From: a virus
Direction: 5' to 3' (one strand)
Virus genome (UHGV): UHGV-0219172
Length of the DNA stretch: 31,814 bases
Shown: in pieces, positions 16,375 to 31,814 of the stretch
Layout of the letters: every line of letters begins with the position of its first letter
Numbering within the stretch: position 1 is the stretch's first letter
The notes under the pieces: generated by a model
What the model was told of the DNA's origin: nothing
Database searches by the model: none
Seen by the model: only the letters and a program-made list of their open reading frames with translations
Program-made: the position numbers and the translations under genes

Positions 16375-16804
16375 TGCCGTCACGGTGCTGAAAACTAACC
16401 CCGATATGCTGCGGATATTCGTGGATAACGGGAGTATTGCCTCCACACTGGCGACGTCGCTGTCGTTCGAAAAGCGTTACACGCTCAATGTCATTTTGAC
16501 CGACTTTACCGGTGATTTTGACCTGCTCATCGTGCCGGTGCTGGCGTGGCTGCGGGAAAATCAGCCCGACATCATGACCACCGACGAAGGCCAGAAAAAG
16601 GGCTTCACGTTTTATGCGGACATCAACAATGACAGCAGCTTTGATATCAGCATCAGCCTGATGCTGACCGAGCGCACGCTGGTCAGTGAGGTGGACGGCG
16701 CGCTGCATGTGAAGAATATCCCGGAACCCCCGCCGCCGGAGCCGGTCACCCGCCCGATGGAGCTTTATATCAATGGCGAACTGGTGAGCAAGTGGGATGA
16801 ATGA
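16337..16804 (+). CDS. R: tail completion protein R
   Basis: 155-aa ORF at the P2 R position. Confidence 0.85.
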   Translation: MLKPDSLRRALTDAVTVLKTNPDMLRIFVDNGSIASTLATSLSFEKRYTLNVILTDFTGDFDLLIVPVLAWLRENQPDIMTTDEGQKKGFTFYADINNDSSFDISISLMLTERTLVSEVDGALHVKNIPEPPPPEPVTRPMELYINGELVSKWDE

Positions 16805-17249
16805 GTTTAAGCGTTTTGAAGACCGGCTGGCCGGACTTATTGAATCGCTGTCACCGTCAGGGCGTCGGCGACTGAGTGCCGAACTGGCGAAACGTCTGCG
16901 TCAGAGTCAGCAGCGTCGGGTGATGGCACAGAAAGCCCCGGACGGCACACCCTACGCGCCACGCCAGCAGCAGAGCGCCAGAAAAAAGACCGGTCGCGTT
17001 AAGCGAAAAATGTTTGCGAAACTTATCACCAGTCGTTTTTTGCATATCCGCGCCAGCCCGGAACAGGCATCAATGGAATTTTACGGCGGGAAGTCACCGA
17101 AAATCGCCAGCGTGCATCAGTTTGGTCTGTCGGAAGAAACCCGGAAAGACGGTAAGAAAATTGATTATCCGGCGCGTCCTTTGCTCGGCTTTACCGGTAA
17201 GGATGTGCAGATGATTGAAGAGATTATCCTGGCTCACCTCGATCGTTAG
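16797..17249 (+). CDS. S: tail completion protein S
   Basis: 150-aa ORF overlapping the R stop, at the P2 S position. Confidence 0.85.
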   Translation: MNEFKRFEDRLAGLIESLSPSGRRRLSAELAKRLRQSQQRRVMAQKAPDGTPYAPRQQQSARKKTGRVKRKMFAKLITSRFLHIRASPEQASMEFYGGKSPKIASVHQFGLSEETRKDGKKIDYPARPLLGFTGKDVQMIEEIILAHLDR

Positions 17250-17399
17250 TTGTGCAATTTTTTTACGCTTTATTGCTGAGTTGTTGATTGTTGTATAACA
17301 CTCTTTGTATTTTCGTCGGATAAGTTTTAATTGCCACTTGAAAATATACAGTCGATTGGGGCATAAGGATTCATCAATGGTGATCGTTTGAATGTTTAA

Positions 17400-17430
17400 G
17401 GCCGCGATAAAATGTCGCGGCCAGTTTTTT
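17400..17430 (+). terminator. rho-independent terminator after the R-S transcript
   Basis: Stem GGCCGCGA (17400-17407) and TCGCGGCC (17415-17422), followed by a six-T run (17425-17430). Confidence 0.65.
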
Positions 17431-17453
17431 CCGTTTGCGAACTGACCAGGTTG

Positions 17454-18197
17454 TTATCTGGTTAAATAAGTGAGCTCACTCTCTTTAGGTATTAGCTGAG
17501 TGTCTCCTCCCCATTCGTTCATGATGTTTTTTCTCGCATTCCAGTATTCTTGGTAAGTATCTTGATGAACAGTGTAGATACTTGCTAAAAGCCAGTGTTG
17601 ATACTTAAGAGTCGTGTATTGGTATTCTTCTATTATCGGTAAAATGAATAAGTTTTTTTGCTTTAGTGAGATTAAATATTCTTTTGTTTGTTTGGTGGTT
17701 CTGTCATTGTTTAAGATTCTTTCAATCTTAAATGAAAAGCCGTGCATGTTTATATTTCTTTGGAGGTGCATGAATGATGATATTGATGGGGCGATCATGT
17801 TTTGATGCGTCAGGATGTTTCTTAAATCCTCCATTAATTTTATTACTGGATTATTTCGGAATTCATGATTGATGAATGCCTCTGATTTGATTTTAATGTC
17901 GGCAATATTTAATGCTTTTGTTTTAAGTAGGTTGCGCGTTGAATCTCTAAATGATAATGCTGAAGATATATAATTGAAAAGGTGTCTTGATATGTTTAAA
18001 TGTTCTTTTTTAAATTTGTCTCTGTTAAATGAATGACGGGAAACAATGTCAGGGGAGTTGAATTTGCTTAATTCATGTTGGACAACTTCGTAATTGGCAA
18101 TATGCATATGTCCAAGTAAATTGGTGTCGGAGATTTTTAAATACTCTTGGTGGGCGATGGTGTCTTTTTGATTTTCCCAGATTTGATATTTATCCAT
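17454..18197 (-). CDS. cargo gene at the S-V (P2 orf30) position: 247-aa protein of unknown family with two RNxxxH motifs, candidate HEPN-like defence/abortive-infection protein
   Basis: Antisense to the late operon, with its own SD (AAGGAA upstream of the minus-strand ATG). Visibly AT-rich. Motifs LRNILTH (R126 to H131) and QRNINMH (R147 to H152) fit the HEPN Rx4-6H pattern. I recognise no family. Confidence 0.5.
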   Translation of the reverse strand: MDKYQIWENQKDTIAHQEYLKISDTNLLGHMHIANYEVVQHELSKFNSPDIVSRHSFNRDKFKKEHLNISRHLFNYISSALSFRDSTRNLLKTKALNIADIKIKSEAFINHEFRNNPVIKLMEDLRNILTHQNMIAPSISSFMHLQRNINMHGFSFKIERILNNDRTTKQTKEYLISLKQKNLFILPIIEEYQYTTLKYQHWLLASIYTVHQDTYQEYWNARKNIMNEWGGDTQLIPKESELTYLTR

Positions 18198-18216
18198 ACT
18201 TCAGTTCCTTCTTGAT

Positions 18217-18234
18217 TGTGCCAAAAATGATACA
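18217..18234. promoter_or_regulatory. TGT-N12-ACA dyad, candidate Ogr-type late-activator site for the V promoter
   Basis: TGTGCCAAAAATGATACA in the 83-bp divergent intergenic region between the cargo gene and V. Matches the P2/P4 late-promoter dyad pattern, but its centre is only about 55 bp from the V ATG, closer than I would expect. Confidence 0.3.
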
Positions 18235-18280
18235 ACGGGTTGTAATGGTTTATCGAGTATATATCTCTCATTATTGCCGT

Positions 18281-18916
18281 ATGAGCACATTATCAAATAT
18301 TCAGGAACTCGCGCGCGCACTGCGCAACATGATACGCACCGGCATTGTCGTCGAAACCGACCTTAACGCCGGTCGCTGCCGTGTGCAGACCGGCGGCATG
18401 TGCACCGACTGGCTTCAGTGGCTGACCCATCGCGCCGGGCGTTCGCGCACATGGTGGGCACCTTCCGTGGGGGAACAGGTGCTGATTCTGGCCGTGGGCG
18501 GTGAACTCGACACGGCGTTCGTTCTGCCGGGGATTTATTCCGGCGATAACCCCGCGCCGTCTGCGTCGGCGGATGCCCTGCATATCCGTTTCCCTGACGG
18601 GGCGGTGATTGAATATGAACCCGAAACCAGTGCACTTACGGTAAGCGGAATTAAAACGGCCAGCGTGACGGCCTCTGATTCTGTTACTGCCACGGTGCCG
18701 GTGGTCATGGTGAAAGCATCAACCCGCGTCACCCTGGACACACCGGAGGTGGTCTGCACCAACAGGCTGATTACCGGCACGCTGGAAGTGCAGAAGGGCG
18801 GGACGATGCGCGGCAACATTGAACATACCGGCGGTGAACTCTCATCAAACGGTAAGGTACTGCATACCCATAAACACCCCGGCGACAGCGGCGGCACAAC
18901 CGGGAGTCCTTTATGA
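18281..18916 (+). CDS. V: baseplate spike/assembly protein V
   Basis: Starts MSTLSNIQELARALRNMIRTG; the track ORF extends upstream to 18212. Confidence 0.9.
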   Translation: MSTLSNIQELARALRNMIRTGIVVETDLNAGRCRVQTGGMCTDWLQWLTHRAGRSRTWWAPSVGEQVLILAVGGELDTAFVLPGIYSGDNPAPSASADALHIRFPDGAVIEYEPETSALTVSGIKTASVTASDSVTATVPVVMVKASTRVTLDTPEVVCTNRLITGTLEVQKGGTMRGNIEHTGGELSSNGKVLHTHKHPGDSGGTTGSPL

Positions 18917-23456: not shown

Positions 23457-24683
23457 ATGTTACAGTTCAGCTTTGTATCAAATGACGTTGTTATGACTTA
23501 CGACGGTGACAGCGGAGAACAAATAATTTGGGTTTGGGAGAGTTTAAATAAATTTCAAACAGTATGCATTTCACGAATTTTTAACTTTCAACTCCAGGAC
23601 TTGAGAAACCCACCGTCAACCGTTCAGGATTTTAATGATTACGAATATTCCTTTAATTTTGGCACGCTTAATAATGAATACATAACAGTTCCGGGACGGA
23701 TTCTAAGCATTAATCGAGATGTCCTTATACATAAGTCCATCAAGCTTGAAAGGAAAGTATTTGCGTCAGAACGCAACGTCTCCATTTTTGGTCGGCTTTC
23801 AAAACTACTCGATCACACTAATCCCATCATCATCGGAGGAGATAAGCCGGAAGCTATACCAAAAAGCGTATTCCAGGAGTTGCAAAGTAAATTCCACAAC
23901 ACAGGGGAACTGGATCGCTATGCTAATGCAAGGGTTCACGCTATTCTCGCAGGTTATCTTGATGGTATGAAAGATGCTCGCGAACGGTATGAACATTACC
24001 TAAACAGAAAAACAGTGATCAGAAAAACCGACAAACTGGATTTAGAAGTTTTAAATAAGCTCGAAATTGAGAAATATACACTCATAAGAGACATTATCCA
24101 GGATGCGTTGAATAACAAAACTAACTTGTCTGAAGATGACTGGCAGAGCCTGATGATACCCTTCATCACATTACTTTTTCCAAAATATATCAAGGTCCTC
24201 GAGAAGGTTAAAATTTTCGACTATTACTCTAATCCTTCGGCTAAAACAAATCGGTTTATAGACATTGCACTGGTGGATGCAAACGGCAACCTTGATATCA
24301 TCGAAGTCAAAAAGCCGTTTGATGATAAGATCCTTCGCAAGACGCCCTATCGCGATAACTATATTCCTACATCAGAACTTAGCGGCGGTATTATGCAGGC
24401 TGAAAAGTATATTTTTCATTTATCTAAATGGGGTGTTAAGGGTGAAAAAGAGCTTACGAATGCCTACAAGAATTCTCTGCCAGCGGGAATGTGTATTCGT
24501 ATATCTAACCCAAAAGCCATCATCATTGTCGGACGCGATCAGATAGCGAACGGTAACATGACCGACGGTCAGTTGCTTGATTTTGAGATAATCAAACGTA
24601 AGTACGCCAACATGATAGACATATTGACGTACGACGACCTGTTGCGTCGACTTAATAATACGATTGAAGCATTGAAAGGTTGA
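23457..24683 (+). CDS. cargo gene at the G-FI (Z/fun) position: 408-aa protein with a C-terminal PD-(D/E)xK nuclease-like core, possibly Shedu (DUF4263)-like; candidate anti-phage defence
   Basis: ATG 23457 with GAGG SD. Visibly AT-rich, flanked by about 290 bp of non-coding DNA on each side. C-terminal region FIDIALVDANGNLDIIEVKKP ... QAEKY gives D269/D280, E283-x-K285 and Q314...Y318, a restriction-endonuclease-fold pattern. Confidence 0.5.
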   Translation: MLQFSFVSNDVVMTYDGDSGEQIIWVWESLNKFQTVCISRIFNFQLQDLRNPPSTVQDFNDYEYSFNFGTLNNEYITVPGRILSINRDVLIHKSIKLERKVFASERNVSIFGRLSKLLDHTNPIIIGGDKPEAIPKSVFQELQSKFHNTGELDRYANARVHAILAGYLDGMKDARERYEHYLNRKTVIRKTDKLDLEVLNKLEIEKYTLIRDIIQDALNNKTNLSEDDWQSLMIPFITLLFPKYIKVLEKVKIFDYYSNPSAKTNRFIDIALVDANGNLDIIEVKKPFDDKILRKTPYRDNYIPTSELSGGIMQAEKYIFHLSKWGVKGEKELTNAYKNSLPAGMCIRISNPKAIIIVGRDQIANGNMTDGQLLDFEIIKRKYANMIDILTYDDLLRRLNNTIEALKG

Positions 24684-31674: not shown

Positions 31675-31701
31675 AAAAAATAAGCCCGTGTAAGGGAGAT
31701 T
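31675..31701. repeat. attR core: second copy of the 27-bp att direct repeat
   Basis: Identical to 783-809. Confidence 0.85.
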
Positions 31702-31814
31702 ACACAGGCTAAGGAGGTGGTTCCTGGTACAGCTAGCATTTTATGGGTTATGTTTTTCAGCGAAACGGATGATAACCTTAATAAATGCAGCTGTATGTGA
31801 TCGGTTTCTAAGAA

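Follow-up and report, generated by a model that had tools for sequence, protein, structure and literature searches.

The gene at positions 17454..18197 (minus strand) of UHGV-0219172, a P2-like Escherichia coli prophage of which one stretch of 31,814 nucleotides (nt), here called the window, was analysed, encodes a 247-amino acid (aa) protein lodged between the phage genes S and V. Our preferred reading, to which we give about an even chance, is that this protein belongs to an orphan and uncurated family with a HEPN-like core and a single Rx4H motif, and that it is a lysogenic-conversion cargo of the S–V slot acting as a single-gene abortive anti-phage RNase effector. Single-gene HEPN abortive-infection proteins, defence by prophage cargo and the P2 hotspots are already established; the novelty lies in the family, which none of the curated libraries searched contains, and in the fixed residence of the cargo subfamily in the S–V slot.

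That 17454–18197 is a true gene under purifying selection follows from the comparison of its alleles. Of 5426 complete E. coli genomes 18 carry it; two alleles occur, of ~100% and ~80% nucleotide identity, and dN/dS between the window allele and the 80%-identical one is 0.17, which argues for purifying selection on a real gene; full-length homologues of the protein were also found at 51–59% and at 32–35% identity. An earlier note, made from the sequence of the window alone, had given the coordinates and the strand of this ATG-initiated frame correctly, together with the gene's own Shine–Dalgarno sequence (AAGGAA, 18205..18210, minus strand, read directly 7 nt upstream of the ATG) and its AT-richness: G+C content is 0.31–0.34 along the gene and 0.55–0.63 in the flanks, with 33.2% for the whole gene (against 55–60% for the flanks) and 36% at third codon positions. 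The protein is predicted to be soluble and basic (isoelectric point 9.15, GRAVY −0.64, no transmembrane segment), with a maximal 19-residue Kyte–Doolittle mean of 0.49.

A 100%-identical copy of positions 17250–18280 lies in E. coli strain 504838, in a prophage integrated between yegR and yegQ, where, in RefSeq, the gene stands as a 'hypothetical protein' flanked by the 'phage virion morphogenesis protein' (gpS) and the 'baseplate assembly protein V'. By this annotation, the flanks of the cargo gene in the window are gpS (16797–17249) and an intact gpV (18281–18916, with its ATG at 18281), and the whole intergenic insert (17250..18280) measures 1031 nt, as compared with 61–66 nt in empty slots. 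P2 itself carries orf30 antisense in this slot, which the P2 annotation shows to be bounded by the S terminator and the P_V activator site; slot and orientation are the same, so the parallel with orf30 drawn in the earlier note stands. In strain 504838, the annotation makes gpV (locus L001, 19032–19667), the neighbour of the identical cargo gene, a pseudogene interrupted by a stop; among the homologues, P0007 is the cargo protein itself in truncated or frameshifted form.

The functional argument starts from two RNxxxH motifs, 21 residues apart, which are indeed present at R126/H131 and R147/H152 as the earlier note had read them, and which it had taken for the twin active-site pattern of HEPN-type RNases. 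Two such sites could act together, as in two-HEPN effectors; both motifs are present in the window allele, and in shuffled versions of the protein the probability of at least one RNxxxH is 0.054 and that of at least two is 0.0014, i.e. 0.14% of shuffles. Conservation separates the two motifs. It was computed on an alignment of 150 members, mostly ~14–25% identical to the window protein and with a dozen close ones at 29–76%. In this alignment N75, R126 and H131 are 100% conserved, followed by N35 and Y192 (97% each), W202 (95%), R88 (93%), R71 (90%) and N127 (84%), and the family consensus around the first motif reads F-x-x-D-L-R-N-Y-x-L-H-x-x-x-P. The second motif varies among close homologues and throughout the family: among the other five close homologues of full length, position 147 is K, N or D and position 152 is S in one case, while family-wide column 147 holds K/R/N/P/A/S and column 152 holds S/T/H/N, mostly S/T. 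Moreover, its codons (17742..17759, minus strand) fall in a predicted beta-hairpin and not in a second helical bundle. The pair is thus improbable in a single sequence, yet only its first member is conserved, which marks the twin as accidental. The second RNxxxH is judged, from sequence comparison, to be a coincidence of the window allele; the twin active-site pattern does not hold, conservation of the RNxxxH residues is borne out for the first motif only, and a joint action of two sites appears highly improbable.

The remaining candidate catalytic motif, R126-N127-I-L-T-H131 (codons at 17805..17822, minus strand), was located in a model of the protein predicted by AF2. With 27 diverse sequences the model reached a pLDDT of 88.9 and a pTM of 0.83; with six sequences pLDDT was 56.7 and the model was unusable. 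Long helices, as delimited by DSSP, span residues 14–44, 59–92, 99–114 and 117–129, and beyond residue 129 come a beta-hairpin (138–157), short elements and two helices (185–214 and 216–229). R126 and N127 close the predicted helix 117–129, which ends at residue 129 in DSSP, and H131 lies in the loop that follows; we read residues 99–129 of the model as core helix 3, with the motif at its end and at the start of the loop. Codons for R71, N75 and R88 (17934..17987, minus strand) map to predicted helix 2, and this conserved region is likely to be either the second half of an active site or part of the core of the fold.

The HEPN domain is described by Anantharaman et al. 2013 (PMC3710099) as a four-helix up-down bundle with an Rx4-6H motif, a polar residue (N/D/H) directly after the R and, in many cases, a conserved acidic residue on helix 2, typically as Ex3[KR]; according to the same paper, the motif is usually missing from HEPN domains that are non-catalytic. 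The cargo protein shows an all-alpha four-helix up-down core in the predicted model, a conserved Rx4-6H and a polar N after the R, and the placement of the motif in the model agrees with the HEPN position given there. Known HEPN RNases (HepT/MNT toxins, AbiD/F, AbiJ, AbiU2, ApeA, pEK499_p136 and RnlA; PMC3710099) form the comparison group. With them the family would share, by the model, the four-helix up-down bundle and an invariant R-[polar]-x3-H ending helix 3, as well as a conserved basic/polar pair in helix 2 and a sporadic distribution beside restriction–modification (R-M) and other defence genes. Unlike them, it gives no significant hidden Markov model (HMM) match to any Pfam HEPN family, has its insert between helix 3 and helix 4 where helix 2/helix 3 is the usual place, and has neither a fused nor an adjacent partner such as MNT or an ATPase. 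Among the closest known systems is HepS of the Salmonella prophage Gifsy-1, a single-protein HEPN abortive-infection system (PMC13043305).

The same residues can be explained otherwise. The protein could be a non-catalytic helical one (a regulator, a binder of nucleic acid or protein, or a superinfection-exclusion factor), in which R, N and H serve structure or ligand binding; we consider this rather unlikely, since R126, H131 and N75 stay invariant at identities of mostly ~14–25%, as one expects of catalytic residues. The HEPN active site is also matched in the Rx4H spacing, in the polar N behind the R and in the position of the motif, and non-catalytic HEPN domains usually lack the motif (PMC3710099). 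The predicted structure also brought up a ClyA-family-like alpha-helical pore-forming toxin with a beta-tongue. The Foldseek comparison with the predicted structure that the earlier note had proposed returned nothing significant from PDB or BFVD; its top PDB matches were NheA, Cry6Aa, MakE, SmhA, AhlC, XaxB and ClyA. These have E-values of 0.02–0.9, a TM-score of ~0.16 and a root mean square deviation of 23–40 Å, the hydropathy and GRAVY values given above are those of a hydrophilic protein, the hairpin is polar, and the cargo protein comes with neither a signal peptide nor partner components. On the Foldseek scores and hydropathy a ClyA-like toxin is effectively rejected, and it retains the smallest probability of all the explanations weighed here.

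To place the cargo protein in a family, its relatives were sought at several depths. Scans of the cargo protein against Pfam, NCBIfam and PADLOC gave no match (0 at E ≤ 10 for PADLOC-DB v2.0.0), in agreement with the earlier note, which could assign it to no known family; phrog_12680 (PHROG 12680), of unknown function, is its sole library match. A word-indexed search of 5.8 billion proteins yielded 7 clusters only, and an exhaustive HMM search of 1.84 billion representatives yielded 337 proteins at E ≤ 1e-3. A third homologue search, with a 150-sequence profile, recovered the same 28 proteins again. No match was obtained with megablast (DNA) and tblastn (protein) against a phage collection or with tblastn against a plasmid collection, and a literature search found no papers citing the family accessions. 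Members are mostly ~240 aa long, with a few fusions of ~700 aa that carry an unrecognised C-terminal part.

These fusions (P0037, P0052, P0068, P0076, P0078, P0103, P0144–P0146 and P0152; loci L109, L142 and L155) have a C-terminal region of ~450 aa without Pfam or PDB match, and near its end stands the consensus A-Y-R-I-R-D-R-H, another Rx4H-like motif. An internal duplication was considered and rejected, the N-terminal domain and the C-terminal part showing no similarity by hhalign.

Genomic distribution was surveyed by pattern scans over one genome per species. A pattern for the close subfamily gave no match, and one for the broad family gave 60 loci, in Proteobacteria, Cyanobacteria, Chloroflexota, Actinomycetota, Bacteroidota, Acidobacteriota, Bacillota and one Methanothrix, a sporadic distribution typical of mobile defence genes. 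Across 59 genomic loci no neighbour gene family is shared beyond local synteny, which indicates that the cargo gene acts alone; in the window, likewise, no conserved adjacent antitoxin was found and the cargo is the only conserved gene of the 1031-nt insert. Several distant relatives stand close to defence genes: an MmeI-type R-M gene ends 23 bp upstream of one, and others lie beside SNase, SocA/Panacea and an Eco57I-type methylase, beside an nSTAND NTPase and a 1561-aa helicase-nuclease, or beside a KAP NTPase, GIY-YIG, a type I-like R-M fusion and SIR2. Of the 147 genes lying at most two positions away from a family member, six belong to AAA_21, the most frequent Pfam family there, and PADLOC matches comprise AriA/mad3 (6), type IIG R-M, Dsr1, Old, DrmMI, GajA, HEC-01A and PD-T4-6. 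The earlier note had asked whether homologues always sit in P2 S–V slots or in defence islands. Close relatives, down to 32% identity, are always in the S–V slot; remoter ones are stand-alone genes, often, not always, beside defence genes.

Several results weigh against a HEPN-like defence RNase. Pfam hmmscan, run on the cargo protein, on sets of 80 and 150 members and on 4 consensus sequences, disclosed no recurrent family; one member alone matches PF18736 (E = 0.0057), so that a profile link to the recognised HEPN families is lacking, and PDB sequence searches with the cargo protein, the family profile and the profile of the ~700-aa fusions gave nothing meaningful. Helix 2 holds E68 (73%)-x2-R71 (90%) and the invariant N75, with a spacing of Ex2R and not Ex3[KR], and the window protein itself has N68 where the family mostly has E68. 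Among the 147 neighbours, finally, many are housekeeping genes (transporters, glutathione S-transferases and others). PADLOC applied to the family members gave scattered weak matches, in which Cas13Nterm is the sole repeated model (5 members, E ≥ 0.003). Of the HEPN-type active site proposed in the earlier note, a single motif at the HEPN position of the model is therefore kept, and the twin motif is given up; HEPN-like is to be taken as a well-motivated inference and not as demonstrated membership. As to the single-gene anti-phage system suggested there, the lack of a partner and the defence-rich neighbourhoods of distant relatives speak for it, and the defence function itself is one that we infer, as we do HEPN homology, RNase activity, trigger-dependent activation and an anti-phage phenotype.

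The second line of the argument concerns the slot. In all 18 confident IMG/VR matches the cargo is antisense between V and S; a nineteenth match (L179) is weak (E = 4e-5) and lacks P2 tail genes on its flanks. The same arrangement occurs on all contigs found for the family proteins P0003 and P0006. On four contigs with a 32–35%-identical cargo, gpS is ~46% identical to that of the window and gpV, in three of the four, 59–78%; the nearest sequenced phages of two such contigs were checked and have the Enterobacter cloacae complex and Yersinia enterocolitica as hosts. Since the S–V location is kept down to 32% identity in divergent phages, the cargo has diverged along with its phages and is not freshly imported. 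What the earlier note had described as horizontally acquired is borne out in the sense of a horizontally mobile cargo of the P2 S–V slot.

How often the slot is filled was estimated by a census of 80 IMG/VR P2-like loci chosen by gpS similarity. The S–V spacer is 61–66 nt long, i.e. empty, in 68 of these; 4 loci carry the cargo family, 4 a P2 Orf30-like protein of 261 aa (L034, L080, L086 and L090) and 4 an unrelated 357-aa protein (L070, L072, L083 and L088), and all twelve occupants are antisense. Both the 357-aa and the Orf30-like proteins show extended hydrophobic stretches that suggest membrane segments, as read from the translations and not computed. A fourth cargo type, ORF16 of phage R18C (L100, 9380–10120; 246 aa), is in sense orientation and displays a CxxC...H...CxxC pattern with an HNH-like look. 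Homology of the cargo protein to Orf30 was rejected (BLASTP E = 0.74, hhalign probability 0.1%), as was homology to R18C ORF16 by comparison. The cargo thus resembles P2 Orf30 and the other occupants in being a single AT-rich gene lodged in this slot, with the S terminator on one side and the P_V activator box on the other; its antisense orientation is that of Orf30 and the 357-aa protein and differs from that of R18C ORF16, and in sequence it is unrelated to all three.

Defence hotspots of P2 are established at the gpA–gpQ old/tin locus and at the Z/fun locus (Rousset 2022; Vassallo 2022; NAR 2026 PMC13586616), and the main ones are reported as never empty. The S–V slot is similar in being a small variable locus between conserved phage genes with single-gene cargo; it differs by being empty in 68 of 80 loci and by the mere handful of cargo types seen in it, and the cargo family studied here has co-diverged with the phage, without the rapid swapping of the hotspots. 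Two copies of an 8-nt sequence in direct orientation, TTGTGC(A/C)A, flank the insert (17250–17257 and 18216–18223), and empty S–V slots hold a single TTGTGCCA directly after the S stop codon; this repeat may be the recombination footprint of the arrival of the module.

Signals around the gene bear on its expression. A G+C-rich hairpin with a T-run (17400..17432, plus strand), 31 nt past the cargo stop codon and also present in the 80% allele, is a predicted terminator of the late operon whose last gene is S, and is likely to stop the antisense transcript of the cargo as well. On the other side, the stretch that separates the start codons of the cargo (18197) and of V (18281) contains a TGT-N12-ACA dyad of the Ogr/activator box type (18217..18234, plus strand), assigned to the late promoter P_V. 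The dyad is kept in every allele of the cargo module, and its place is that of the P_V activator site in the P2 annotation. The P_V version of the window is not the one of empty-slot phages; it travels with the module. By match to consensus, the only sigma-70-like candidate upstream of the cargo is TCGATA-18-TATCAT (18227..18256, minus strand), and its predicted −10 element falls inside the dyad. As judged from these sequence signals, the arrangement suggests that the cargo and P_V promoters are divergent and overlapping, with a possible shut-off of the cargo when Ogr activates P_V.

This overlap, as a hint of coupling to the late programme, can be claimed for a role centred on the phage itself, in which the same HEPN-like RNase chemistry would serve a prophage addiction or toxin module, an anti-P4-satellite tool or a modulator of the P2 lytic cycle, and the confinement of the subfamily to one P2-like slot down to 32% identity suggests a long-standing phage-specific function of this kind. 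Such a role is nevertheless given only a small share of probability. The gene is dispensable for the phage, since 68 of the 80 sampled slots are empty; the distant relatives are carried on chromosomes, outside phages, and have defence genes nearby; the 59 loci show no partner gene; and the insert holds no conserved antitoxin-like open reading frame, the only small one, considered as an antitoxin (17263–17364, minus strand), having been discarded on the ground that part of it falls beyond the stretch shared by the alleles.

Under the preferred reading of an abortive anti-phage RNase, the protein would be a lysogenic-conversion cargo of P2-like phages, transcribed in the lysogen from its own promoter and antisense to the late operons. 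It would consist of a HEPN-like four-helix core with one catalytic Rx4H (R126-N127-x3-H131), assisted by the conserved residues N35, R71, N75 and R88 of helices 1 and 2, and the beta-hairpin insert and C-terminal helices (~135–230, with the conserved Y192 and W202) may provide oligomerisation or sensing. By analogy with HepS, ApeA and AbiD/F, it would remain inactive until triggered by a superinfecting phage, and once triggered it would cleave RNA (tRNA, rRNA or mRNA) and bring about abortive infection. A bolder version can be formulated, which we regard as a long shot: an orphan HEPN-like RNase, at once sensor and effector, that is a long-term resident of the Peduoviridae S–V slot and whose interleaved promoter would be occluded upon P_V activation, so that P2 escapes its own defence.

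The rest of the prophage offers a context for the defence reading. The G/FI (Z/fun) slot contains a Shedu effector, SduA (23457–24683, plus strand), which matches PDB 8ps4_A over its full length (E = 5.8e-274). In the gpA–gpQ (old/tin) hotspot lies a gene (6694/6736–7665, plus strand) for a RefSeq 'DUF4238 domain-containing protein', an annotation taken from 14 E. coli genomes with at least 99% identical DNA; a single-protein DUF4238 system of the P2 old/tin hotspot protects against T7 (Rousset 2022). The other two cargo slots of the prophage thus hold defence genes, which was counted in favour of a defence role of the S–V cargo. At the right edge of the window, the gene of the small RNA CyaR/RyeE was identified (31678–31763, minus strand; Rfam RF00112, 100.7 bits).

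If confirmed, these findings would make the S–V slot a further cargo site of P2-like phages, one that is seldom occupied and that houses four or more unrelated candidate genes, among them the never-explained orf30. A cargo promoter that overlaps the P_V box, if true, would provide a simple model of how a prophage turns off its own defence gene in lytic growth. Confirmation would also add to the single-gene HEPN-type abortive-infection effectors a family that is widely but sparsely spread, with 337 cluster representatives and 60 loci in at least seven bacterial phyla and one archaeon, and that goes undetected by Pfam, NCBIfam and PADLOC.
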